Origin: Candidatus Saccharimonadota bacterium
GTDB taxonomy: Bacteria > Patescibacteriota > Saccharimonadia > Saccharimonadales > JAGQNJ01
Reading direction: 5' to 3'
NCBI GenBank assembly: GCA_036826295.1
Contig: DAISWO010000003.1
Coordinates: 42,018-106,017 of the forward strand
DNA: 64,000 nucleotides
Shown: piece by piece, positions 10,534 to 21,391 of the stretch
How the letters are laid out: each line of letters starts with the position of its first letter
Numbering within the stretch: position 1 is the stretch's first letter
Translations under genes and position numbers: made by a program
Notes under the pieces: model-generated
The model's database searches: none
What the model was told of the DNA's origin: nothing
What the model saw: only the letters and a program-made list of their open reading frames with translations

Positions 10534-11910
10534 TTATGCAAGCTTTAGCTTGCCCACGAGTTCAGCAATTTTAACGCGTTCTTGCTTTGTCGTGTCACGA
10601 TCTCGTACCGTAACAGTGTCATCCTCTAAAGTATCGAAATCTACAGTCACACAATATGGCGTTCCAATCTCGTCTTGTCTACGGTATCGCTTCCCGATAT
10701 TTCCGTTATCATCAAATTCGCATGTCATAGTTTGGCTAAGAGTTTCAAAAACTGCTTTTGCCATTTTTACTAATTCGGGTTTGTTTTTTAATAATGGAAA
10801 AACAGCAACTTTAACTGGAGCGAGAGATTTGTGCAGTTTTAGAACGGTGCGTGTTTCACCATCGATTTCTTCTTGCTCATACGCATCGCAAACCACCGCC
10901 AAGAACATTCGGCCTAAACCAACTGACGTTTCGACAACCCAAGGTATGTACTTCTCATTTGTAGTCGGGTCTTGATAACTGAGGTCTATACCAGAAAACT
11001 TAGTGTGCTGACTCAAGTCATAATCGGTTCTGTCGTGTATTCCCTCCATCTCATCAAAGCCCATTGATGGATAATTGTATTCTATATCCCAAGCTTCTTT
11101 ACAGTAAAAGACCAAGTTATCGTGTTTTTTCCAGCGCAGATTTTCTTCTTTTATACCTATATCCTGGTACCATTGCCAACGATTCTTCTTAACTTGATCG
11201 TAGACGTTTTTATTCTCATTTGGCCTAATAAAATATTGTGTGTCAGCTTGCTCTAACTCGCGGGTTCGAAACAGAAAATTACGCGGGCTGATTTCGTTCC
11301 GGAAGGCCTTCCCGATTTGGGCAATACCAAAAGGCACTTTCATTCGGGTAGTGTCGACTACATTTTTAAAATTAAGATAAATCCCTTGGCATGCCTCGCC
11401 GGGAAGGTAGACAACCCTTTCTTCTTCTCCAGCAAAATCGCCTAGATTTGATTTGACTAGTAGGTTAAAGGCTTTAACTGATGAAAAATCTTTCTTTCCA
11501 CACTTTGGACATTTTATTTGTTTTCTGTTTTCGTCGAATAGTCGATTCAATTCTTCCTCCGACATTTTTTCGTCAGCTGTGACGCCTACGCCTTCAAGCT
11601 CTTTATCGACACGAATTCGATTATGACAATTTTTGCACTCTGCTAATGGATCAGAAAAACCAGAGGTGTGACCTGAGGCTTCCCATACTTTAGGATTTTT
11701 AAAGATAGCGGAATCCAAACCTACAAAGTCGGTACGACTTGTTACATTTGCTCGCCACCACGCAGCCTTTAGATTATTTAGTAGCTCGACTCCGTAGGGA
11801 CCGTAGTCGTACAGACCTGCTTCTCCACCATAAATCTCTGATCCTTGGTAAACAAACCCACGGCGCTTACATAAACTAACGATGTCTTCTAGGCTAACTT
11901 TTTTACTCAT
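10534..11910 (-). CDS. glyQS: Glycine--tRNA ligase (alpha2 dimeric type)
   Basis: 458 aa. N-terminus IVSLCKRRGFVYQGSEIYGG and class II motifs. Confidence 0.92.
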   Translation of the reverse strand: MSKKVSLEDIVSLCKRRGFVYQGSEIYGGEAGLYDYGPYGVELLNNLKAAWWRANVTSRTDFVGLDSAIFKNPKVWEASGHTSGFSDPLAECKNCHNRIRVDKELEGVGVTADEKMSEEELNRLFDENRKQIKCPKCGKKDFSSVKAFNLLVKSNLGDFAGEEERVVYLPGEACQGIYLNFKNVVDTTRMKVPFGIAQIGKAFRNEISPRNFLFRTRELEQADTQYFIRPNENKNVYDQVKKNRWQWYQDIGIKEENLRWKKHDNLVFYCKEAWDIEYNYPSMGFDEMEGIHDRTDYDLSQHTKFSGIDLSYQDPTTNEKYIPWVVETSVGLGRMFLAVVCDAYEQEEIDGETRTVLKLHKSLAPVKVAVFPLLKNKPELVKMAKAVFETLSQTMTCEFDDNGNIGKRYRRQDEIGTPYCVTVDFDTLEDDTVTVRDRDTTKQERVKIAELVGKLKLA

Positions 11911-11935
11911 ATTATTATCTATTGTATCAGATACA

Positions 11936-12628
11936 CTAGCTTACAGTTTGCATAATATGTTGCAACAGCTGCAAGCAAACACCTACCTCGGCTTTAACGC
12001 CACCCACAACATTAATTCGCTCAATAGTCTCGTCTGCCAACAAGCGCATTAGCTTTATATGCCTACTGTTATAGGAGCCCTCGGCTTTGCGCACAAAACA
12101 CATGTCGTCTTGATCGAATGCATAATTACTAGCTTCTGCTAGACTGTAACCCTCCCTATCGGTTGTAAGATTTGGTTCGTGTCCCATCGTCATAATTAGG
12201 TTCATATAAAACCAGGCTTCAATCAAACTCAAATTAAATTCTGGATTATTGAGAGCTGATATCGATCGTAGTAGTAGATTATAATAATCAATATCGCAAT
12301 TATCTTGAGTAACCGAGTCAATGGTCGTAAGAATCGCATAGGCCGTGTTTGTTCGTTCTATATCTTTTACTATTTCTCCGTAATGCGTAACAAGCCTAGA
12401 CGAAGTTAATGTTCCAATCTCTTTTTTTGCCGGGATAAAACTAATACTACTAACGCTAAAAAGTTCAATACCGCCTGCTAATTTGCTCTTTTCTTTGCGA
12501 ACACCCTTCGCGATCAACGATAGCTTGCCCTGATCGGGGGTAATAATCGTCAGGATTCGGTCAGCTTCGCCGAAGTTAATGCGTTTTAGAACTATGCCGC
12601 TGGTCGATTTACTATTTGGCGCTGGCAT
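11936..12628 (-). CDS. recO: DNA repair protein RecO
   Basis: 230 aa. GIVLKRINFGEADRILTIITPDQGKLSLIAKGVRK is a typical RecO OB-fold N-terminus. Confidence 0.85.
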   Translation of the reverse strand: MPAPNSKSTSGIVLKRINFGEADRILTIITPDQGKLSLIAKGVRKEKSKLAGGIELFSVSSISFIPAKKEIGTLTSSRLVTHYGEIVKDIERTNTAYAILTTIDSVTQDNCDIDYYNLLLRSISALNNPEFNLSLIEAWFYMNLIMTMGHEPNLTTDREGYSLAEASNYAFDQDDMCFVRKAEGSYNSRHIKLMRLLADETIERINVVGGVKAEVGVCLQLLQHIMQTVS

Positions 12629-13007
12629 CTTTTGCCTTCACTAAATCTGCCGTCACCGAGAGCAGATTGTCTAATGTAACTTTTGGTTTATACAGCACCC
12701 TTGAAATTCCTAATTCTTCGGCAACTAACGGACTAATCCCCAATACGTCTTCTGGTATCAAAGAATTAATTATAATCGGAATGTCGTGCCAATCTGGATG
12801 TGATCGAAGCTCGTATAAAAATTCTATTCCATTATGTTCACCTAACTGAATTTCTAGAATTATCAGTTTTGGGTTTTGTCTGTCTAGCGCATGGATCGCT
12901 GTTTGCGCGGTTGTCTGAAGATCTACTTTGTACCCCGCTCTTTGCAAAATCTTTTTATAAGTACTCCCAAGTATTGCGTCCGGTTCAATTAACAAAACAT
13001 CTACCAT
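12612..13007 (-). CDS. Stand-alone receiver (REC) domain protein with Glu at the phospho-acceptor position (pseudo-receiver)
   Basis: 131 aa with CheY-like topology. LIILEIQL sits where DxxxxD...LxxLD is expected (E52 instead of Asp); the S (IINS) and K-P (YKPK) positions are conserved. Overlaps recO by 17 nt. Confidence 0.75.
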   Translation of the reverse strand: MVDVLLIEPDAILGSTYKKILQRAGYKVDLQTTAQTAIHALDRQNPKLIILEIQLGEHNGIEFLYELRSHPDWHDIPIIINSLIPEDVLGISPLVAEELGISRVLYKPKVTLDNLLSVTADLVKAKDASAK

Positions 13008-13040
13008 GCAAATATTATAGTCCCAAACAGTCCAAGCACG

Positions 13041-13751
13041 CTATAATAGCTTTAATTGTGCACTCGGCAAGAGATTGGCGATAAGTCCAGTCATGTTATT
13101 GTGTCTTATAAAATGTAGCTCACTGTCCATTGCATAAAAAAGCGAGTCTGCGACATATAAGCCCGCTCCGCTAGTATGCGTCATATTTGAAGCTGGCTGA
13201 CGCGCGTTCCCGTACAATTTTCTCGCGCTATCTAGTGATTTTTTACTAATCTTACTGCCAGAACTTAGTATGCCCACGCTAATCACGTCATTATCATTTC
13301 TAGCCAATAACGTAACTAATTTTTTTATCGAGAAGGTATTCGCACTAATAAAAGTATATGCCAAGCTTGTAAGTGCGGCTTCTAGAGCACTTTTATTTGC
13401 CATTACTAAACCGCATTTGCCCTCAACTCTTATATCAATATCTGTATTATATAATTTGGTCAGCCGACTTAGATTTTGCGCGCTATCATACATTGTTGAG
13501 GTGAGTGAGATTGAGCTGAGTTCTAAGGGTACTTGGTTGATTAGAGTCTGAGAGCTCAAAACGTAACTATCAAGTAGTTTAATAGCAGCTTCCGCAGTTA
13601 TCTCGATACGCCTATATTGATCTCGGTCGTTCATTAAACGGCCAAATTCTGCACTTCGCGCCACTTGCATAAAGGGCAATTTCAACTCTTCTACTAGGGA
13701 GTATAATAGCTTAATGTTCGGATCTACCTGAACTTGCTGATTACCTAACAC
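13041..13751 (-). CDS. Degenerate cytoplasmic histidine-kinase-like protein (His replaced by Glu; N and G1 boxes eroded)
   Basis: 236 aa. SLVEELKLPF aligns to the HisKA H-box SHELRTPL with E at the His position. The C-terminal TSGAGLYVADSLF...GLIANLLP resembles the G2 box and end of HATPase_c. No TM segment. Confidence 0.6.
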   Translation of the reverse strand: MLGNQQVQVDPNIKLLYSLVEELKLPFMQVARSAEFGRLMNDRDQYRRIEITAEAAIKLLDSYVLSSQTLINQVPLELSSISLTSTMYDSAQNLSRLTKLYNTDIDIRVEGKCGLVMANKSALEAALTSLAYTFISANTFSIKKLVTLLARNDNDVISVGILSSGSKISKKSLDSARKLYGNARQPASNMTHTSGAGLYVADSLFYAMDSELHFIRHNNMTGLIANLLPSAQLKLL

Positions 13752-13821
13752 AATCTACTTCTCCCTCTCTTAATATCTAAGAAAAGTATATCACGCCAAG
13801 GATTTTTGACTAATTTATCAG

Positions 13822-14487
13822 CTACGGCGAGAAATCAAAATTTTTAAGAATATTTTTCTCAAAATCGGGTACGAATTGGCTATCTTCTGTCCATATTTTT
13901 ATAGTTTTATCCCTAAGCGGAAGCAAAATCATTACCCCAGATTTATTAGTATCAATCTTGCCAACAACTTGCGTACCGATAATATTATCAACATTTACGG
14001 GCTTATAAGGTTTTGCTCTCGCGTCTCCATTTTTTACAGCAGAGTCAAAATTTTTAATTTCTTCGGCATAAGTTGCGTTAGATATTTGCAACCTCAATGC
14101 AAAAGCTGTGCCTCCCTTAATATTTGGTACAAAATTTGGATGGAAGTATCCGTCAACAGGCGTGCTAGAGCCATTTTCATCCACAAATGCACTCCATGTC
14201 TTTGGATATTTCACAGACACACTTCCAAATGACGATGGCCCGGCATATTCTTTCAAGGGCTCCTTTTCACGTTGAATAAAATCATTATCCTTCTGAGTTG
14301 CGGTCTCTTTTTTTGCAACTTCAACAGCAGTACTTATTTTTTCATCGACATTATTCTTATAATCTGTTCTTTCAGCGTAAGCCCAATAGCCAAAGCCAAG
14401 CGCACCGAAAAACATTAACAACACAAATATCAAAGCAATAAGCAATAAGCTGACTGCACCATTCTCATTTAATTTTTTAGAATCCAT
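13822..14487 (-). CDS. Hypothetical membrane-anchored protein
   Basis: 221 aa with a single N-terminal TM (VSLLLIALIFVLLMFFGALGFGYWAY) and a soluble C-terminal domain. No recognised family. Confidence 0.55.
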   Translation of the reverse strand: MDSKKLNENGAVSLLLIALIFVLLMFFGALGFGYWAYAERTDYKNNVDEKISTAVEVAKKETATQKDNDFIQREKEPLKEYAGPSSFGSVSVKYPKTWSAFVDENGSSTPVDGYFHPNFVPNIKGGTAFALRLQISNATYAEEIKNFDSAVKNGDARAKPYKPVNVDNIIGTQVVGKIDTNKSGVMILLPLRDKTIKIWTEDSQFVPDFEKNILKNFDFSP

Positions 14488-14553
14488 ATTGCTAATGGTA
14501 TAACAATATACTTACATCTGACAAGTACTCTTTATATCCAGACACAAAATCAC

Positions 14554-15042
14554 TTACTTATACTCATATAAAAATACACCCTGATCCGTTCTGACAGGTT
14601 TTTTGTTAGGTATTTTAAACGCATAGCTTGCCAGCCTTACTGGATTTGAGTAATCTTTTGATATTTTTTGGTCAAGCCGCGCCATATACTTGTCCAACAA
14701 AAAACAATAGATCCCGTCGGCTTCAGGCCATTTTTTGTGCCAATAATTTCCCCATATGATGGTTATTTGTTTTCGGTGTGAAAAAGTAACAATTTTTGCT
14801 ACTACAACCAATATTGGGTTCAGCTCATAGCCGGTAACACGCAGGCCATTTTTTGCTGCGGCCTTTAACACCCTGCCATCGCCACAACCTAGTTCTATAA
14901 AACTTTGTCCTGATTTTAAGTTGAGTAGATTTAAAGCAACTCTAATCTGATCTTTTTTTGTTGGCAAATAGGGTGCGCCAAATAAAATCACGAATCCGAA
15001 ACAAACAACAAATATTAATACTGTTAAAGATAGCCAGTTCAT
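14554..15042 (-). CDS. Class I SAM-dependent methyltransferase with N-terminal TM segment
   Basis: 162 aa. Motif I is ELGCGDGRV, preceded by a hydrophobic N-terminus. Confidence 0.65.
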   Translation of the reverse strand: MNWLSLTVLIFVVCFGFVILFGAPYLPTKKDQIRVALNLLNLKSGQSFIELGCGDGRVLKAAAKNGLRVTGYELNPILVVVAKIVTFSHRKQITIIWGNYWHKKWPEADGIYCFLLDKYMARLDQKISKDYSNPVRLASYAFKIPNKKPVRTDQGVFLYEYK

Positions 15043-15231
15043 CTATCCCTTAAACTTTTTTACTTCGTTCTTTGCATTTTCTAGGTATCGACGCAGTTCG
15101 TTCACGAGCTCAGTGCCTTTTGCGTGCAGGTCCAAAGCTTTATCAACATCTGTATCTACACTCTGTAGTTGATCTAGGACTTCATCTAGCTCATCTCTTA
15201 TCTGGGTGTATTTTCTTATTTTTTCTGTCAT
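15043..15231 (-). CDS. xseB: Exodeoxyribonuclease VII small subunit
   Basis: 62 aa, helical, directly downstream of xseA. The LDEVLDQLQS...LDLHAKGTELV pattern fits. Confidence 0.85.
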   Translation of the reverse strand: MTEKIRKYTQIRDELDEVLDQLQSVDTDVDKALDLHAKGTELVNELRRYLENAKNEVKKFKG

Positions 15232-15235
15232 ATTT

Positions 15236-16363
15236 TTATTCTACCTTTAATTTGCCTATTTCAGCCATAGCACTCCCTTTTGCGAGACGAATATCAATTT
15301 TGTCTCCTATATCAAGCTGCTGTATAGATTTTATTGTTTGACCATTTTTTGAGACTATCGAGTAGCCTCTGTTTAAGACTGCTTGTGGATCAAAACTTCT
15401 CAATAATTGTTCTTTTAATTCTATCTTTGATGCTTCCTGATTCAAAAAATCTTTCAAGTAATTAGAAATGTTCAGAATGTTTTGATCTAAGCTGTTACTT
15501 GCCCCAGAAAGTATACTTTTAACTGTTGTTGCGAGACTGTCTAAGTCCCTATTTAGTCTTCGTACTTCATCTCTTCTATCCGGAACAATTATCTCGGCGG
15601 CATTGCTAGGCGTACTTGCACGTTTATCTGCTACTAGTTCTGCAAAAGATAGGTCCCGTTCGTGACCTACAGCTACTAATGTAGGTATTCGGCTACTCGC
15701 AATGGCTCTTGTGAGTTTTTCGTCGTTAAACGCATCAAGGTCATCAGAACTTCCACCTCCTCGAGTGATAACCAGCAAGTCTAAATAAGGAAGCCCGGTA
15801 TTCAAGTTGTTTATTGCTTTAATTATCTGATTAGGTGAATCAACGCCCTGAACCAAGGCTTCGTGATGAACGATCTTTAACCCCGCCCATCTTTGATTAA
15901 CAATTTTTATAAAATCACTATAGGCGGCTGACTCAGATGATGTAATTAAACCAATGGAATACGGAATCGTTGGTATCTGCCTTTTACGTTCTGGGGCAAA
16001 TAAACCTTCTTTTTCCAACTTGGCGTGTAGCAACTTATTAGCACGATTAATTGTTCCCTTGCCAGAGAGTTCGATTTGTTCGACCTGCAGACTGAATCCA
16101 AATCTAGGATGCAATTGCGGGGTAGCTCTAACTCGAAGCATCATTCCGTCTTCTATTGGTGCCGGTAATTTTAAAATCGATCCAAAAAAATTTACGCTAG
16201 AGTTTTCGTCTTTTAAACTAAAATACAGCCAAGTATTTCTACTAATCCGGAGGTTACTAACCTCTCCTAATACCACTACACTAGAGTATGCATAATTTAT
16301 AGTCTGATTAAAGACTGCGACAAAATCACTAACTCCAAACTCTAACCTCGAATCTACACTCAT
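15236..16363 (-). CDS. xseA: Exodeoxyribonuclease VII large subunit
   Basis: 375 aa. OB-fold N-terminus (VVVLGEVSNL), ITRGGGS motif and coiled-coil C-terminus. Confidence 0.88.
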   Translation of the reverse strand: MSVDSRLEFGVSDFVAVFNQTINYAYSSVVVLGEVSNLRISRNTWLYFSLKDENSSVNFFGSILKLPAPIEDGMMLRVRATPQLHPRFGFSLQVEQIELSGKGTINRANKLLHAKLEKEGLFAPERKRQIPTIPYSIGLITSSESAAYSDFIKIVNQRWAGLKIVHHEALVQGVDSPNQIIKAINNLNTGLPYLDLLVITRGGGSSDDLDAFNDEKLTRAIASSRIPTLVAVGHERDLSFAELVADKRASTPSNAAEIIVPDRRDEVRRLNRDLDSLATTVKSILSGASNSLDQNILNISNYLKDFLNQEASKIELKEQLLRSFDPQAVLNRGYSIVSKNGQTIKSIQQLDIGDKIDIRLAKGSAMAEIGKLKVE

Positions 16364-17403
16364 TGATTATAGTTTTTATCGTGAATTGCTTTATGATAAA
16401 AATAATATCCGGGAGGAAGCTGTATTGTCATATTGATAATCCTATAGGTTATTGTAATCGGCAGACTCACCCCAGCCGGGACCCCAGCAGAAGCCAAAAC
16501 TCCAGTCATCAAAAATTCGTATACACCTACACCCCCAGGAAAAACTGATATGACTCCGGCAAAGTTAGCCACTGCATAAGCTATAATTACAGCTCCAGGA
16601 TTTACCCACTGCGCAAACGCAATATAAACTATATAAATAGTTATTATCTCTGCAATATTCGCTAGCAAGGCTGAGACCAAAGGACGCTTTAGAACTTTAG
16701 GGTTTTTTCTTATTAACATATAGTTTTCATGCAAATCTGTAAATAAATCCTGAACCGTCTGCACACTTATAGTTTCCGGGTGTCTACGACGAAAAACATG
16801 AATCAATCGATTTAATATATTTGTTAGAAAAGTAAAAAAGCTATTAATACGCTGTTTACTGCCAAGAATATATGCCCCGATGAATGAACCAATAAATAAT
16901 AGTGTTGCCAATGAGCCAGCGACTAAAATTGCCAAGTTGCTCGCTTGGCCACCTATGGCAAGAATGATCAAACCAGCTGCTAACAGTATCTGAAACGATA
17001 TAAATACTAGAATGTATTTCATGAACTGAACGAGAGTGGACTGGCCGCCGCTTACACCCATACTTTTCATCCTAACCCCAAAATAAGACACTCCTGTTAC
17101 TCCGCCACTAGGAAACACAGTATTCACGAAGTTAAGCTCTAGCTGTACGCGGAACATTTTTAAATATCTTATTCGTTTATTAAGTATGTAGAACAAATCT
17201 TGATACATCTGAGAATAGGCATGGTAATTTAAGATCTGTGCTGGAACCATCAAGAACAATGCAAACTTTTTCAAGTTCCCGACATTAGATACGGTCTCCC
17301 CTATTTGGTCTCTTGTGACATAAAACAAACCAGCTAACGCCAAGAACGTCACGACGTTAATGATTAGCTTCCAAGGTGTTTTTTTCTGTTGTTCTTCAGA
17401 CAT
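16360..17403 (-). CDS. Polytopic membrane protein, UPF0104/MprF-TM-like (flippase-like) family, putative
   Basis: 347 aa, about 8 TM segments, Lys-rich N-terminus. Resemblance to lysyl-PG synthase TM-region proteins is by eye only. Confidence 0.5.
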   Translation of the reverse strand: MSEEQQKKTPWKLIINVVTFLALAGLFYVTRDQIGETVSNVGNLKKFALFLMVPAQILNYHAYSQMYQDLFYILNKRIRYLKMFRVQLELNFVNTVFPSGGVTGVSYFGVRMKSMGVSGGQSTLVQFMKYILVFISFQILLAAGLIILAIGGQASNLAILVAGSLATLLFIGSFIGAYILGSKQRINSFFTFLTNILNRLIHVFRRRHPETISVQTVQDLFTDLHENYMLIRKNPKVLKRPLVSALLANIAEIITIYIVYIAFAQWVNPGAVIIAYAVANFAGVISVFPGGVGVYEFLMTGVLASAGVPAGVSLPITITYRIINMTIQLPPGYYFYHKAIHDKNYNQ

Positions 17404-17443
17404 AAGTATTATGTTTATTTATTATACCGTCTATACTTTAACT

Positions 17444-18628
17444 ATGCACAATAAAACTATTTGTATCCTTGGCAGACTACCCTCTATTGCTACCGCCGAG
17501 CTTGAAAGCTTATTCGGGGCGGATCGGATTACAAAACTCTCTTCCGAATCAGTTCTTTTAAACGAAGATCCAAGTATTATTAATTATTCTCGTCTTGGCG
17601 GTACTGTAAAAACGTGTAAATTATTACATATTTTTGAAGAAAAAAATTGGTCGAAAGTCGAGTCCTACCTAGAGAACCAACTCCCCAATCACATTAATGA
17701 TAACAAAAAATTAACATTAGGGTTGAGTGCTTACAGTGTAGCTGTAAATCCTAGTCAGCTATTAAAAACAGGTCTTAAATTAAAGAAACAAATTAAAAAA
17801 CTTGGTACTTCGTTTAGGCTAGTCCCTAATAATGACCCTGCACTATCAAGTGCCCAAGTATATCACAACAAATTAACTAAGCCTGGTTCATTAGAGCTTT
17901 GTTTTGTTGGCTCTGGTAATAAGATTTATATGGGGCAAACTGTAGACGTTCAAGACATTAACGCTTACTCTGCCAGAGATCAAGCCCGACCTAAACGTGA
18001 TGCCCGAGTAGGCATGTTATCACCAAAACTAGCCCAGACAATCATAAACTTAGCTAACCCTAAAGCAGAAGATATTATTTTAGATCCATTCTGCGGAACT
18101 GGAGTCATCCTGCAAGAAGCACTACTTATGGGTTTCGCCGTAGCCGGGACTGATTTAGAGCCACGAATGATTGAATATACCCATGAAAATATTGAGGTTT
18201 GGCTCGCAGGCAAATACCCTGATTTTAAAGATAAGGTCAATCTAAAAATCGCCGACGCCACCTCTGTTATTTGGAATAATGCCGAAGGTATTCAATTTGA
18301 TTCGCTTGCCAGTGAAACCTATTTAGGACGCCCACTAAGCTCACTTCCAAGCATGGCTATACTTGATCAAATCATCAGGGATGTTGATACAATATTAAAA
18401 AAGTTTTTAAAAAATCTCGCCAACCAAACAAATCCAGGATTCCGTCTATGTATAGCAGTCCCCGCCTGGAAAACTCACTCCGATTTTTTGCACCTTCCAC
18501 TCCTTGACCATCTCGAGAGATTAGGCTATACTCGTATGAAGTTTACTCACGCAGATGATAAAGATTTGATCTATCATCGTGAAGGTCAAATTGTTGGTCG
18601 TGAATTAATAGCATTAACTAGGAAGTAG
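17444..18628 (+). CDS. SAM-dependent methyltransferase, UPF0020/Trm11-like (RNA or DNA methylase)
   Basis: Motif I is ILDPFCGTGVILQEA. The motif IV position reads SETYLG instead of (D/N)PPY. Start trimmed to ATG 17444 (MHNKTICILG) because the track start overlaps the upstream divergent gene. Confidence 0.55.
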   Translation: MHNKTICILGRLPSIATAELESLFGADRITKLSSESVLLNEDPSIINYSRLGGTVKTCKLLHIFEEKNWSKVESYLENQLPNHINDNKKLTLGLSAYSVAVNPSQLLKTGLKLKKQIKKLGTSFRLVPNNDPALSSAQVYHNKLTKPGSLELCFVGSGNKIYMGQTVDVQDINAYSARDQARPKRDARVGMLSPKLAQTIINLANPKAEDIILDPFCGTGVILQEALLMGFAVAGTDLEPRMIEYTHENIEVWLAGKYPDFKDKVNLKIADATSVIWNNAEGIQFDSLASETYLGRPLSSLPSMAILDQIIRDVDTILKKFLKNLANQTNPGFRLCIAVPAWKTHSDFLHLPLLDHLERLGYTRMKFTHADDKDLIYHREGQIVGRELIALTRK

Positions 18629-18633
18629 TAAAT

Positions 18634-18906
18634 ATGTCACATGTCAAAGCGGGCGGTACTAGTAAGAATAACAGAGACTCTCAAGGTCAAAGACTTGGCG
18701 TTAAGCTTTTTGGTGGTCAACCAGTAAAAACCGGACAAGTAATTGTCAGACAAATCGGGATGACAAAGCGCCCTGGTAACGGTACATTCATGAGCCGTAA
18801 CTTCACTATCCACGCTGCTAAAGATGGCGTAGTTGGCTTTAAAACACGTAAAGTTAAACGTTTTACTGGTAAAACTGCCAGACGAACCGAAGTAACCGTA
18901 GAATAA
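18634..18906 (+). CDS. rpmA: 50S ribosomal protein L27
   Basis: MSHVKAGGTSKNNRDSQGQRLGVKLFGG is a classic bL27 N-terminus. Confidence 0.93.
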   Translation: MSHVKAGGTSKNNRDSQGQRLGVKLFGGQPVKTGQVIVRQIGMTKRPGNGTFMSRNFTIHAAKDGVVGFKTRKVKRFTGKTARRTEVTVE

Positions 18907-18907
18907 A

Positions 18908-19177
18908 TTAAGTAAGATTTGCCGTTCGAGGAGGTAATCCGTTTCTAGCTCGAATTGCCCTATCGGCTGCATCAACACCCATTTGTTGAATTGTTCTTGT
19001 TCTGACTTTATCGCCCTCTGATTCAGCTTTAGGAGGTCTTACCGCAGCTGCTTCAGCGGCTGCTGTTGCTATTTCTCCTTCAGTTAATTGACGCCTGACT
19101 GGCGCGATAGGTAATTCTCTAAGTGCTAATTCATCTGCTGTTGGTACGTGGTCTATAATTTTTCTTTGTTCACCCAT
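18908..19177 (-). CDS. Hypothetical Ala/Arg-rich protein
   Basis: 89 aa. Good SD (AGAGGA) 7 nt upstream of the ATG. No recognisable domain. Confidence 0.45.
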   Translation of the reverse strand: MGEQRKIIDHVPTADELALRELPIAPVRRQLTEGEIATAAAEAAAVRPPKAESEGDKVRTRTIQQMGVDAADRAIRARNGLPPRTANLT

Positions 19178-19368
19178 ATATATCCTCTATCTAAAAATCA
19201 ATTGACTTCGTTATGGCTGTACTCAAAATGGCATCGTTAAATGTATCAAAGCCGTTTACGGGAAAATTGTCTTGATTGGTTTGTTTTTGATTCATGTTTA
19301 TTTTCCATTCTTAAGGAATATATACAGTATACATTATGCTTGTGTTTTTGTCAATATTAGATTAATTA

Positions 19369-19746
19369 CTAAACACCAAGATGGTGTTTAACTCGTTCTA
19401 CTACGTCGGCAATTACTACCTGCGATTTGACCATGTAGTCATCTGCACCTAATTTTTGGGCTTTTTCTTTATCGCTGTCCTGACTAAGGGCCGTGAGCAT
19501 GACCACCTTCATATTCGCCGTCTCTGGAGTATTTCGCAGAATATCAAGCACGTCAAAGCCACTTACTTTTGGCATCATCACATCTAATAATATTAGATCC
19601 GGCCGAAATTCCACTGCTGCAGCCAGGGCGTCTTCACCGTTCGGTACTCTATGTACGCTGAATCCCTCCGTTTCAAGACGCATGCGATAGACGTTCGCTA
19701 ACCCATCATCATCCTCAACTAATAATATTTTCTTTTGATTGCTCAT
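19369..19746 (-). CDS. Single-domain response regulator (CheY-like), canonical
   Basis: LLVEDDD, DLILLDVMMP, MLTA and K (YMVKS) are all present. No partner kinase lies in the window. Confidence 0.85.
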   Translation of the reverse strand: MSNQKKILLVEDDDGLANVYRMRLETEGFSVHRVPNGEDALAAAVEFRPDLILLDVMMPKVSGFDVLDILRNTPETANMKVVMLTALSQDSDKEKAQKLGADDYMVKSQVVIADVVERVKHHLGV

Positions 19747-19771: not shown

Positions 19772-21391
19772 TTATGACTTTTTAGCAAGTAAACTCTCTA
19801 CGAATCCTTTAAATAATGGCTGTGGTTTGTTCGGTCGCGAATTAAATTCAGGATGAAACTGCGATGCTACAAAGAATGGATGATTTACCCCTTCAATCAC
19901 CTCTACTAATCGCTTATCTGGCGACAACCCTACAGCTTTGATGCCCCAATCTTTATAGCTTTCTCGATACTCATTATTACATTCATAGCGATGCCTATGT
20001 CGACCAATTATTTTTTTGCTTTTGTAATACTTGGCAGTTAAAGAATCCTTGTCAAGATCACACGGATAATTACCGAGTCGCATTGTTCCGCCTGTATTTT
20101 CCAAACCTTTTTGTGAGTTCATAGTACTGACAACTTGAAAATCACTTTGCGAATTAAGCTCCGTACTGGTCGCGTCCGAAACCCCCGCATTTCTGGCTGC
20201 AGCGATTACTGCCATCTGCAAGCCAAGACAAAGCCCAAGATAAGGAACTTTGTGTTTTAACGCGTACTGCGCCGCTTTAATCTTACCTTCCAGTGCTCTT
20301 TCCCCGAAACCGCCAGGAACAATAATGCCATCAACTTTGTCAAAGGTCTTTTTCAATTGAGATTGCGTCATAGCCTCACATTTTTCGGCATCAATCCAGT
20401 GATATTCAATCCCAACCTTACTATGCCATCCAGCACTTTTTAAGGCTTCTATAACGCAGATATAAGTGTCTTCGTTATCCAAGTATTTCGCAACTAGTCC
20501 AACTTTTACCTTCCTGCTAGGTTTGTCCATAATAGTTGCAACCATATCTCGCCACTCTTTCATGTGAGAACGTTTATGCTTGAGACCTAATTTTTTCACT
20601 ACATAGTCACCTATTCCTTGATCTTCTAAAGTCAAGGGGACTTGATAAACACTTTTGGCATTCGGCAATAAGGCAATACCATCTTCTGACACTCCACAAA
20701 AAGTACTCAATTTTTGTTTTACCCGCTTACTATTAGGAGATTCCTCACATCTCGCTACGAGCAGGTCCGGCATAATACCCATACTCCTGAGCTCTCTAGT
20801 GGCATTTTGAGCGGGTTTTGTCTTTATCTCCTTACTTGCAGCTAAATACGGTAAATAAACAACCTGAACGTTAATACAGTTTTCCTGCCCCGCTCGCGTT
20901 CGATATTCTCGTATCGCCTCAAAAAAAGCTGGACTCTCATAGTCTCCCACCGTTCCTCCGATTTCGACAATATGTACATCAAACCCTTGGCTGGCCTGGT
21001 CGATATAATTTTGTATTGCGTCTGTAAAGTGCGGGACAACTTGGACTGTTTTTCCTAGATATTTACCATCTCGTTCGTCCTGAATCAGCTTCCGCAAAAC
21101 TCTCCCACTCATTACCGAACTTGAGGAAGTTAACTCAACATCTAAAAACCTTTCGTAATGGCCTAGGTCTAAATCAGTTTCCGATCCGTCCGCAGTAACA
21201 AAACATTCACCATGCTCTGCTGGATTTAACGTGCCCGCATCAACATTTAAGTATGGATCGAGTTTTTGGATATTTACAGAAAGCCCTCTACTCTTTAGAA
21301 TATTTCCGATTGAGGCGGCAGTTATACCCTTACCGAGTCCTGAAAGAACTCCGCCTGTTACAAAAATATACTTAGTAGGTCTTTTTGCCAC
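19772..21391 (-). CDS. pyrG: CTP synthase
   Basis: 539 aa. KYIFVTGGVLSGLGKGI N-terminus and the glutamine amidotransferase motif GLCLGLQ. Confidence 0.95.
   Translation of the reverse strand: MAKRPTKYIFVTGGVLSGLGKGITAASIGNILKSRGLSVNIQKLDPYLNVDAGTLNPAEHGECFVTADGSETDLDLGHYERFLDVELTSSSSVMSGRVLRKLIQDERDGKYLGKTVQVVPHFTDAIQNYIDQASQGFDVHIVEIGGTVGDYESPAFFEAIREYRTRAGQENCINVQVVYLPYLAASKEIKTKPAQNATRELRSMGIMPDLLVARCEESPNSKRVKQKLSTFCGVSEDGIALLPNAKSVYQVPLTLEDQGIGDYVVKKLGLKHKRSHMKEWRDMVATIMDKPSRKVKVGLVAKYLDNEDTYICVIEALKSAGWHSKVGIEYHWIDAEKCEAMTQSQLKKTFDKVDGIIVPGGFGERALEGKIKAAQYALKHKVPYLGLCLGLQMAVIAAARNAGVSDATSTELNSQSDFQVVSTMNSQKGLENTGGTMRLGNYPCDLDKDSLTAKYYKSKKIIGRHRHRYECNNEYRESYKDWGIKAVGLSPDKRLVEVIEGVNHPFFVASQFHPEFNSRPNKPQPLFKGFVESLLAKKS

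Follow-up and report, generated by a model that had tools for sequence, protein, structure and literature searches.

Two adjacent genes in the window (the whole 64,000-nt stretch of DNA analyzed here) encode a kinase-like protein, pHK, and a receiver-like protein, pRR. The two are probably cognate partners derived from a HisKA-type kinase and its receiver, with His–Asp phosphotransfer lost on both sides. Glu stands in both phospho-acceptor columns and pHK has no N-box Asn, yet the pair is conserved class-wide; for these reasons, protein binding, and not phosphotransfer, is the most likely basis of its action. The genes of interest are as follows.

11936..12628, minus strand: recO (TIGR00613, 6e-26)
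12612..13007, minus strand: pRR, a single-domain pseudo-receiver of 131 aa with an ATG start (Pfam Response_reg)
13041..13751, minus strand: pHK, a pseudo-histidine kinase of 236 aa with a GTG start, from the ORF listing
13761..13765, minus strand: GGGAG, a Shine–Dalgarno sequence 9 nt upstream of the pHK GTG start, read from the sequence
13822..14487, minus strand: TM221, a single-pass membrane protein encoded directly upstream of pHK
19369..19746, minus strand: canonical single-domain receiver (Pfam Response_reg, 4.2e-24) with DD, Asp, Thr and Lys intact

An earlier note on this DNA had described the two ORFs, and both were found on the minus strand, at 13041–13751 and 12612–13007. The motifs it quoted lie within them (SLVEELKLPF at pHK residues 18–27, GAGLYVADSLF at pHK 195–205 and KLIILEIQL, which includes Glu52, at pRR 47–55), and the 17-nt overlap of recO and pRR is seen in the window sequence. 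GenBank annotates pHK as a start-truncated 'hypothetical protein' of 209 aa; by length arithmetic, this version would begin near Met28 and omit the H-box-like motif. The GTG start is supported by the upstream GGGAG sequence and by the conservation of residues 12–27 in homologs. Because the pHK family is nearly invisible to Pfam and is start-truncated and labeled hypothetical in this genome's record, two-component censuses of Patescibacteria overlook or misclassify it. In a scan for promoters and terminators, the counts matched those expected from shuffling, and no terminator-like site appeared between the genes on the minus strand.

The receiver partner

pRR matches Pfam Response_reg (PF00072) at 2.1e-12, scoring 47.6 bits against a gathering cut-off of 30.2 bits, and is by this measure a receiver. 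Its best PDB sequence matches are the CheY-like RR468 and FrzS. Four elements carry the assignment of its residues.

12978..12986, minus strand: E8-P9-D10 of pRR, where VLLIEPDA pairs with VLLVDDSA of RR468
12852..12854, minus strand: Glu52, in the phospho-Asp column of the RR468 alignment
12798..12830, minus strand: helix alpha3, residues 60–70 (GIEFLYELRSH), the most conserved receiver element
12684..12764, minus strand: switch residues Ser82 (12762–12764) and Lys107-Pro108 (12684–12689), from homolog counts

A phmmer search against PDB sequences aligned LIILEIQL of pRR with LIVLDIMM of RR468, placing Glu52 on Asp53. The phospho-acceptor Asp at the end of beta3 is thus absent from pRR, and Glu holds the position in 121/121 homologs. 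pRR also lacks the Mg2+-binding acidic pair (DD): DD1 stays acidic as Glu8, and the second metal-binding position, DD2, is Pro9, in 121/121 homologs. Pro9 had been overlooked in the earlier note. The Thr/Ser and Lys switch positions are retained, with Ser at position 82 in 76 homologs and Thr in 44, Lys107 in 119/121 and Pro108 in 112/121; at K-3, pRR has Val104 and most orthologs have Tyr. The RR468 alignment and the homolog counts therefore uphold the description of a receiver with Glu in the phospho-Asp column that has kept its Ser and Lys-Pro. These features place pRR among the pseudo-receivers, or aspartate-less receivers, in which the phospho-Asp is most often replaced by Glu and DD2 is non-acidic in ~80% (PMC12632262). 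Mean column entropy is 0.32 bits in alpha3 versus 2.2–2.7 bits in alpha1, alpha4 and alpha5, and His58 is invariant.

The kinase-like partner

As a single sequence, pHK found no match in Pfam, NCBIfam or PDB sequences, and its homology is therefore taken from the family profile and the fold. The AF2 model (pLDDT 84, pTM 0.81) consists of two long helices and an alpha/beta domain, laid out as a DHp at ~11–71 and a CA-like domain at ~79–236 in a soluble protein with neither a sensor nor a TM segment; the model shows both the DHp four-helix-bundle hairpin and the Bergerat-fold CA domain of HisKA kinases. Foldseek comparison of the model with PDB gave DivL (4q20) as the best match (E=7e-11, TM 0.69–0.72), with further matches to HK853, CusS, ZraS, RetS and ChpT; HK853, DivL, CusS and ZraS match at E ~1e-9 to 1e-10 with TM ~0.7. 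Seven of 140 family representatives touch HisKA in Pfam (best 6e-5), and one touches HATPase_c. Fold and family-profile matches, with no single-sequence HMM match among them, thus identify the upstream protein as the histidine kinase homolog that it had been taken for. Its motifs are the following.

13671..13700, minus strand: H-box-like motif SLVEELKLPF, pHK residues 18–27, with Glu21 at 13689–13691
13341..13385, minus strand: degenerate N-box helix, pHK residues 123–137, LEAALTSLAYTFISA, from a CA-only profile against ZraS and PhoR
13137..13226, minus strand: lid-like loop with R184-Q185-P186, then G2-like SGAGLYVAD (Gly195, Gly197), from conservation counts and the PhoR alignment

In the family profile, Glu21 aligns to the His/Tyr/Glu column of a hybrid kinase, DivL and CpxA. 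The phospho-acceptor His is absent from the H box, and residues 1–75, which span the whole DHp, contain no His of any kind; HisKA domains without the His make up only 0.9% (PMC12632262). The H+4 position is Leu25; among family sequences, Leu occurs there 82 times and Thr only 12. HisKA phosphatases require Thr or Asn at H+4, and the H-E/D-x-x-T/N phosphatase motif is accordingly absent from pHK.

Turning to the CA-like domain, both N-box Asn residues are missing: the CA-only profile against ZraS and PhoR places Ser129 and Thr133 in the two Asn columns. Column 133 holds Ser, Ala, Val, Thr or Gly in 128/145 aligned sequences, and Asn falls outside the five commonest residues. In known GHKL enzymes, the N-box Asn is needed for Mg-ATP binding. 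The G1 box (DxGxG) is likewise lost, with Ser163 or Ser164 in the two possible registers and no GxG thereafter. Many family members hold Asp or Glu at or beside the G1 column, unlike the pHK of the window; at column 164, near G1, one of the two is present in 51/67 orthologs. The G2 box is retained, as the CA-only profile places Gly195 and Gly197 on the PhoR GxG, and Gly197 is found in 134/145 aligned sequences. The G2 glycines and a conserved lid persist across the family, and together with the acidic residues near G1 in many members they make some binding of nucleotides or other ligands conceivable. Gly160, Gly197 and Ala201 are nearly invariant across the family, and R184-Q185-P186 is strongly conserved even though the lid block of the model (181–190) has a pLDDT of only 49.

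The profile alignments thus agree with the earlier account of pHK, which had put Glu on the phospho-His column, judged the N and G1 boxes eroded and recognized a surviving G2-like GxG; the loss of G1 holds for the window protein. With both proteins checked against HMM columns, the catalytic positions fall on Glu21 and Glu52, as had been assigned. pHK fits the Collins and Childers definition of a pseudo-histidine kinase, as given in PMC12632262, having kept the fold and lost the His, the N-box Asn and G1, with a presumed loss of activity.

The conserved remnants of the CA-like domain bear on an alternative in which this domain binds a nucleotide or other ligand through G2, the RQP lid and the Asp/Glu near G1, so that pHK would be a ligand sensor, or a kinase or ATPase acting on another substrate, for example Ser/Thr of pRR, like the GHKL anti-sigma kinases. 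Residual enzyme activity of this kind would suit the strong conservation of Gly195, Gly197, Ala201 and R184-Q185-P186 despite the predicted flexibility of the lid, the acidic residues at column 164 of most orthologs and the invariance of Ser/Thr82 in pRR. It is, however, rather unlikely in view of the absence of Asn from the five commonest residues at column 133, which is the Mg-binding N-box column, and of the Ser residues that the window pHK carries in both candidate G1 Asp columns.

Conservation of the Glu/Glu state

The reading of a pair that binds without phosphotransfer draws further on the distribution of the two Glu residues. Glu52 is present in all 121 homologs, in 63/63 species-level orthologs and in 4/4 RecO-anchored loci. 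A homolog search with RecO yielded relatives of ≥45% identity only, stopping short of Southlakia and the oral lineages. Glu21 is found in 51/51 members of the window subfamily and in 120/144 (83%) of the wider-family representatives. The remaining ~17% of pHK family clusters have Gln, Asp, His, Tyr or other residues at position 21, and Glu21 itself may therefore be functionally unneeded. Loci L001–L066 were found with an EELKLP search pattern and are left out of the Glu21 evidence, because the invariance of EELKLP among them is partly ascertainment. A metagenome scan with one protein that lacks Glu at position 21 gave a single locus (L067). Together, the ortholog, RecO-anchored and spacing counts answer in the affirmative a question that the earlier note had raised, namely whether orthologs share the Glu/Glu state and the linkage to recO.

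Judged from sequence, the two Glu residues of the pair are not strictly coupled. One His-bearing pHK member is still paired with a Glu receiver, and co-variation of His and Asp between the partners is rejected in this, the one case seen. Decay into pseudogenes is also rejected, given the invariant residues across >60 species and the intact ORFs; both the pHK and the pRR genes are under strong purifying selection.

Genomic context

The order TM347-xseA-xseB-MTase-TM221-pHK-pRR-recO-glyS is kept in 66/66 species-level genomes examined, and a syntenic block of 9–12 genes, including glyS, L27, the methyltransferase and the canonical receiver, extends across the class Saccharimonadia. The neighbors of pRR and pHK are xseAB, the methyltransferase, TM221, recO and glyS. 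The gap from pHK to pRR is −4 to +12 nt in most of the 66 genomes, and the overlap of pRR with recO, 17 nt here, is 4 nt in 45/59 other genomes. Adjacency and tight spacing or overlap of pHK and pRR across Saccharimonadia suggest translational coupling. In every one of the 66 loci that includes the flank, TM221 lies next to pHK. It has no Pfam or PDB sequence match, its family profile has no match against PDB, and its single-sequence AF2 model reaches a pLDDT of 42; TM221 may belong to the module as its third component.

The earlier note had treated the pair as operonic with recO. The physical linkage stands, being visible here as the 17-nt overlap and conserved elsewhere, while a functional tie does not follow: the linkage is weak evidence for one because the whole 9–12-gene block is syntenic across the class, and recO is dispensable in S. 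epibionticum. A role of the pair in regulating or scaffolding recombinational repair or competence through RecO would fit the pRR/recO overlap in nearly all genomes and the presence of exonuclease VII genes in the same block. We consider it highly improbable, however, since the block equally includes the unrelated glyS, L27 and methyltransferase genes, and recO, xseA and xseB tolerate insertions in S. epibionticum whereas the pair does not.

A second proposal, that the pair constitutes a partner-switch module, is not sustained. In a partner-switching set, a GHKL anti-sigma kinase lacking a DHp is combined with a STAS antagonist, a PP2C phosphatase and a sigma factor as the target. Components of the STAS, PP2C or sigma-factor kind are absent from the vicinity of the pair, and pHK differs from the RsbW/RsbV or SpoIIAB/SpoIIAA type in having a DHp and a receiver, rather than a STAS protein, as partner.

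The canonical receiver (19369–19746) shares the syntenic block and stands outside the pair. It had been cited as a sign that the lineage still uses normal phospho-Asp chemistry; its intact residues and Pfam match are clear, and actual use of that chemistry is more than residues can establish. No canonical kinase was found in the window.

Essentiality of the syntenic genes in Southlakia epibionticum

Published Tn-seq data for S. epibionticum cover the corresponding block (PMC10633639). With orthology assigned solely from the synteny of 12 genes and from gene lengths, and with calls on such short genes drawing on few insertion sites, SEML1_0246 (syntenic to pHK) is GD/GD/ES with normalized reads falling from 92 to 0.9, and SEML1_0247 (syntenic to pRR) is NE/GD/ES with reads falling from 47 to 0 (PMC10633639 Table S1). 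SEML1_0245, syntenic to TM221 and annotated as PsbP/Mog1p-like, is essential at all time points and belongs to class I (PMC10633639 Tables S1, S2). Insertions are tolerated in the flanking methyltransferase, RecO (NE/NE/GD), xseA, xseB and SEML1_0238 (NE), the syntenic canonical receiver, which is non-essential, as is a canonical PAS kinase and receiver pair encoded elsewhere in the genome, SEML1_0317/0318 (PMC10633639). From this synteny, we infer that the module has a function needed for growth, with no dependence on RecO or the canonical receiver.

SEML1_0246 matches HATPase_c at 6.9e-6 versus 7.4e-26 for the canonical kinase, a match ~20 orders of magnitude weaker, and SEML1_0247 matches the Pfam receiver family at 1.2e-17 versus 5.6e-18 for SEML1_0317 (PMC10633639). 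Because SEML1_0247 scores like a canonical receiver, the S. epibionticum pRR may still hold Asp.

These data also weigh on an alternative modeled on DivL, in which the DHp of pHK binds a phosphorylated canonical receiver (that at 19369–19746) or another regulator, pRR serves as a constitutive phospho-mimic competitor or decoy, and the pair reads a phosphorelay located elsewhere. DivL, which has Tyr for His and binds DivK~P, is the top structural and second-best profile match of pHK; the canonical receiver lies within the same conserved syntenic block, and the S. epibionticum genome carries, at another site, a canonical pair of PAS kinase and receiver. The resemblance to DivL, however, is one of common fold, not of function, and the window contains no canonical kinase. 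Moreover, the syntenic pHK and pRR genes are essential in a species that can do without SEML1_0238 and SEML1_0317/0318, and the essential function would thus be independent of canonical receivers. We therefore regard the DivL-like reading as unlikely.

Proposed mode of action

We favor a pair that signals through binding, for which the following steps may be envisaged. pHK would be a constitutive DHp dimer with no productive Mg-ATP binding and no autophosphorylation. pRR would not be phosphorylatable, and Glu52, Ser82 and Lys107 would hold it in one conformation, probably an active-like one. The two proteins may dock through the ancestral interface, with the conserved DHp alpha1 of pHK (AEELKLPLLQIAR) on one side and, on the other, the L13/A14/Y17/L21 face of alpha1 of pRR together with its active-site loops. 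Output could run through a further partner bound to the hyper-conserved alpha3 of pRR, and possibly also through the RQP lid loop of pHK. As these interactions would be free of phosphotransfer, any regulation would operate through binding or abundance, possibly involving TM221, and not through phosphorylation.

More tentatively, and as a possibility that we rate well below the loss of phosphotransfer itself, the pair could form an obligate phosphorylation-free signaling or scaffolding complex of two-component origin that is essential for epibiotic growth, perhaps as a three-part module with the Patescibacteria-enriched TM221. Here the facing Glu pair together with Glu8, Asp10 and His58 would make a new ligand- or metal-dependent interface, with output via alpha3.

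The pair occurs class-wide in genome-reduced epibionts and is, by synteny, essential in the one Saccharibacterium with Tn-seq data. It offers a natural system, with a genetically tractable relative, for asking what a kinase–receiver interface does once phosphotransfer is lost; how bacterial pseudo-receivers switch was listed as an open question in a 2025 review (PMC12632262).

Comparison with known systems

Among kinase-like proteins, DivL of Caulobacter crescentus shares with pHK a DHp and CA fold in which the phospho-His is replaced, and acts by binding a receiver instead of phosphorylating it. It differs in having Tyr at the site and in being large, membrane-anchored and multi-PAS, whereas pHK has Glu and is a bare core of 236 aa; furthermore, its partner DivK is truly phosphorylatable, whereas the partner of pHK is itself dead. 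PsmA of Streptomyces venezuelae, a hybrid pseudokinase, resembles pHK in its Glu at the H-box His, its unconserved CA ATP-binding motifs and its lack of the E/DxxT/N motif; it has no autokinase activity and works through protein interaction with DivIVA (PMC12963549). Where the system described here has two proteins, PsmA is a single large hybrid polypeptide, and its receiver has retained an Asp that is dispensable for function; the PsmA residue at the His position varies among species, and the family is limited to Streptomycetaceae (PMC12963549). RetS of Pseudomonas and proteins of the ChpT/Spo0B type also have a histidine kinase fold in which the CA domain is degenerate or non-catalytic, and they signal through protein contacts, but RetS and ChpT keep the His and join phosphotransfer or phosphatase reactions with real partners.

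On the receiver side, pRR resembles FrzS, the plant PRRs and Rim15p, in which Asp is replaced by Glu, DD2 is non-acidic and Thr and Lys are often kept (PMC12632262, PMC4395418); FrzS binds its partner via the alpha3-beta4-alpha4 surface, and pRR is most conserved at alpha3. Unlike such FrzS-type orphans or domains of larger proteins, pRR is a stand-alone protein encoded in tight coupling with a dedicated pseudo-kinase. CmrRST of Clostridioides difficile offers a further parallel, with a pseudo-receiver in an operon with two-component partners and a presumed interaction mode, although the CmrRST kinase and one of its regulators are canonical, whereas the pHK–pRR operon holds no canonical partner. 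Pseudo-kinases and pseudo-receivers are thus already known singly; here, a cognate pair combines a dead kinase half with a dead receiver half.

Gene block, annotation and synteny

The pseudo-histidine kinase pHK and the pseudo-receiver pRR sit within a minus-strand gene run whose gaps are short or whose genes overlap. The features of the region are as follows (window positions).

10534-11910, minus strand: glycyl-tRNA synthetase (glyS)
11936-12628, minus strand: recO, identified by TIGR00613 and Pfam, with a 17-nt overlap with pRR
12612-13007, minus strand: pRR, 131-aa receiver
13041-13751, minus strand: pHK, 236 aa, GTG start
13822-14487, minus strand: TM221, 221-aa single-pass membrane protein
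14554-15042, minus strand: class I methyltransferase
15043-15231, minus strand: xseB
15236-16363, minus strand: xseA
16360-17403, minus strand: flippase-like membrane protein
19369-19746, minus strand: canonical single-domain receiver
19772-21391: pyrG, adjoining the canonical receiver

GenBank annotates pRR as 'response regulator', TM221 as 'hypothetical protein' and the pHK locus as a 209-aa 'hypothetical protein' (HMS23725.1). By length arithmetic the last would begin near Met28, removing the conserved H-box-like N-terminus. The GTG start with its Shine-Dalgarno sequence (GGGAG, 9 nt upstream), together with the retention of residues 12-27 among homologues, supports the 236-aa form as the likely product. 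Within the 64-kb window there are no other kinase-like ORFs, and the only other receiver is the canonical one, which lies about 5.6 kb from the pair and carries Lys then Ser (YMVKSQ), versus the usual Lys-Pro; at least nine further loci have receiver-like ORFs in the equivalent place. Promoter and terminator scans were uninformative. ARAGORN found no tRNA or tmRNA genes across the whole window (1-64000), and the GC skew, negative along its whole length, fits a single replichore with mostly minus-strand genes.

The recO linkage noted earlier extends to related genomes, with a shorter overlap in most: the order TM347 (a conserved membrane protein)-xseA-xseB-methyltransferase-TM221-pHK-pRR-recO-glyS is kept in 66/66 species-level Saccharimonadia loci, contig ends permitting, with pHK-to-pRR spacing mostly between -4 and +12 nt and a 4-nt pRR/recO overlap in 45/59 genomes. 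Since gene order in the class is so stable, adjacency alone says little about function. Four contigs bearing the complete Saccharibacteria-type operon (L014, L015, L032 and L052) have MAG titles of Verrucomicrobiia, Candidatus Limnocylindria and Dormiibacterota, and are probably mis-binned. TM221 lies immediately upstream of the pair in all Saccharimonadia cases; it gave no match to Pfam or PDB sequences, and its single-sequence AlphaFold2 model is of low confidence (pLDDT 42). TM221 may be a third component of the module.

pHK is a degenerate histidine kinase homologue

Searches of Pfam, NCBIfam and PDB sequences with pHK alone returned nothing, even at E <= 10. A word-indexed search yielded 81 homologues, all without precomputed Pfam domains (0/81), although JGI gives one of them the label 'KdpD'; an exhaustive profile search recovered 275 family clusters (50% identity) at E <= 1e-30. 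Against the PDB, a 51-member profile matched histidine kinases only (CpxA 0.0024, DivL 0.0098 and others) and placed Glu21 on the His column. The AlphaFold2 model built from the same alignment (pLDDT 84, pTM 0.81) comprises two long helices (11-40 and 44-71) and then an alpha/beta domain, and Foldseek returned 327 PDB matches at E <= 0.001, led by DivL, HK853 (including complexes with RR468), CusS, ZraS, RetS and ChpT, with full-length TM of about 0.7. Given these profile and structural matches, homology of pHK to kinases with a dimerisation/His-phosphotransfer hairpin (DHp) and ATP-binding domain (CA) is secure, and both the kinase ancestry and the Glu at the phospho-His position proposed in the earlier note are borne out.

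Catalytic columns were assigned by aligning a CA-only family profile with ZraS and PhoR. The two N-box Asn columns are Ser129 and Thr133, the G1 Asp column is 163 or 164 by register (Ser at both), and the G2 GxG is retained as Gly195 and Gly197, in keeping with the earlier reading of eroded N and G1 boxes and a surviving G2. Residues were counted over 144 full-length representatives from the exhaustive search, a sample without motif bias. Glu occupies position 21 in 120 of them; Gln and Asp follow with 8 each, His with 3, and Tyr, Leu, Ala and Arg with one each. pHK itself has no His in residues 1-75. At H+1 the counts are 76 for Gln and 31 for Glu. At H+4 Leu prevails (82) and Thr is confined to 12, so that the family lacks the HisKA phosphatase motif. 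At column 133 the five commonest residues, Ser, Ala, Val, Thr and Gly, account for 128/145 aligned sequences (window included), and Asn is not one of them; Gly160, Gly197 and Ala201 are near-invariant. Pfam HisKA is reached by 7/140 representatives (best 6e-5) and HATPase_c by 1/140. On these counts and scarce matches, the whole family is a cryptic, degenerate HisKA derivative.

By analogy with GHKL enzymes, a protein that lacks the Mg-binding Asn, as pHK does, would probably not bind Mg-ATP. R184-Q185-P186 (within residues 184-189; 13185-13202, minus strand) is conserved family-wide, although the ATP-binding residues are lost and the lid loop that holds it is of low model confidence and predicted to be flexible. 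This conservation suggests that the former ATP lid may have a new binding function.

The receiver Glu is the stricter feature

pRR matches Pfam Response_reg at 2.1e-12, over the curated cut-off. In pairwise HMMER alignment with RR468, LIILEIQL pairs with LIVLDIMM, setting Glu52 on the phospho-Asp column, and VLLIEPDA pairs with VLLVDDSA, making the acidic pair Glu8-Pro9; the Thr and Lys positions are Ser82 and Lys107-Pro108, as had been anticipated. Among 121 homologues (90% clusters), Glu52, Pro9 and Gly60 are invariant and Glu8, Asp10, His58 and Lys107 nearly so. Glu52 is present in 63/63 species-level orthologues located via the neighbouring gene. The best-conserved element is helix alpha3 (GIEFLYELRSH; 12798-12830, minus strand), near-invariant in the 121 homologues at a mean entropy of 0.32 bits versus 2.2-2.7 for alpha1, alpha4 and alpha5, and so far better conserved than the helices usual for kinase docking or output. 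Conservation extends to one face of alpha1 (L13/A14/Y17/L21) and to the active-site loops.

Glu21 is found in 51/51 members of the window's pHK subfamily; its presence in the 66 GTDB loci is not counted as evidence, EELKLP having been the search pattern (ascertainment). Four loci found via RecO homologues, a search blind to both motifs, are Glu/Glu in 4/4, with H-box motifs AEELKLPL, AENLKLPL, AEELRLPL and AEDLRAPL, each with a receiver LE(I/M/L)QL. Among orthologues, Glu holds for the receiver and for both proteins at the RecO-anchored loci, but not throughout the kinase family, where position 21 carries other residues in ~17% of clusters. A metagenomic locus (L067:952-2018) encodes a His-retaining member (AHELRMPL) whose N box is degenerate in the same way; downstream come a Glu-type receiver (VEIQL, with ESD), recO and glyS. 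This member may represent either an intermediate stage in evolution or a reversion. With the RecO-anchored loci all Glu/Glu and the His-bearing member still paired with a Glu receiver, the receiver Glu is a deeper and stricter feature than the kinase Glu. Where His is retained, the CA domain of its host protein is already degenerate.

Published Tn-seq in Southlakia epibionticum

Wang et al. 2023 (PMC10633639) reported Tn-seq of Southlakia epibionticum. Comparison of its tables with the window shows that the 12 successive genes at 10534-19746 are ordered as in SEML1_0238-0249; nine are so ordered in the 66 GTDB species. That run comprises a receiver, L27, a UPF0020 methyltransferase, a flippase-like protein, xseA, xseB, a methyltransferase, a 663-bp hypothetical, a 708-bp 'HAMP domain-containing histidine kinase', a 366-bp 'response regulator', RecO and GlyRS. 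In that dataset (calls as T0/T1/T2), SEML1_0245, the TM221 counterpart (PsbP/Mog1p-like annotation, Patescibacteria-enriched), is ES/ES/ES, class I; SEML1_0246, syntenic with pHK, is GD/GD/ES (normalised reads 92, 3.8 and 0.9); and SEML1_0247, syntenic with pRR, is NE/GD/ES (reads 47, 0.75 and 0). The block methyltransferase, xseAB, the canonical receiver SEML1_0238 and the canonical PAS kinase and receiver SEML1_0318/0317 are NE (PMC10633639). RecO is NE/NE/GD with 25-36 insertions retained (PMC10633639). Polarity on glyS does not account for the depletion of the pair, since recO tolerates insertions.

Pfam matches of SEML1_0246, read as independent E-values, are weak (HATPase_c 6.9e-6, HisKA 3.4e-4) beside those of that genome's canonical kinase (7.4e-26 and 2.5e-11), as would be expected of a member of the degenerate pHK family; it was given ECOD HK domains (Table S2, PMC10633639). 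SEML1_0247, matched to pRR by gene order, scores 1.2e-17, like a canonical receiver, and may still carry Asp at the phospho-acceptor site. The terms 'histidine kinase', 'response regulator' and 'two-component' are absent from the main text of PMC10633639, so the pair is apparently not discussed there.

Proposed function and comparison with known systems

The best-supported reading is a conserved pseudo-kinase/pseudo-receiver pair that is phosphotransfer-independent and works via protein contacts. We propose that the DHp-receiver interface is probably retained, that pRR alpha3 probably provides a further output surface and, from the Southlakia epibionticum synteny, that the pair's function would be important for growth independently of RecO and of the canonical receiver. 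Less likely readings, each with evidence against it, are that pHK is a DivL-like reader of a genuine phospho-receiver, that its CA-like domain keeps a ligand-binding or alternative kinase role, and that the pair has a RecO-linked role. We found no description in the open-access literature of a dedicated co-encoded pair with both partners dead, nor of such a pair in Saccharibacteria. The pHK family has been overlooked by current annotation, and the pair offers a tractable model for pseudo-two-component signalling.

Single pseudo-kinases are known in DivL, RetS and PsmA, the last (from S. venezuelae) with Glu at the His site, and 0.9% of HisKA domains in a representative set lack the His (PMC12632262). 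Asp-to-Glu pseudo-receivers are likewise already known: pRR fits the commonest pattern described by Bourret and colleagues, in which Asp is replaced by Glu, DD2 is non-acidic in ~80% and Thr and Lys are often kept (PMC12632262). The conservation of its alpha3 recalls the alpha3-beta4-alpha4 partner surface of FrzS.
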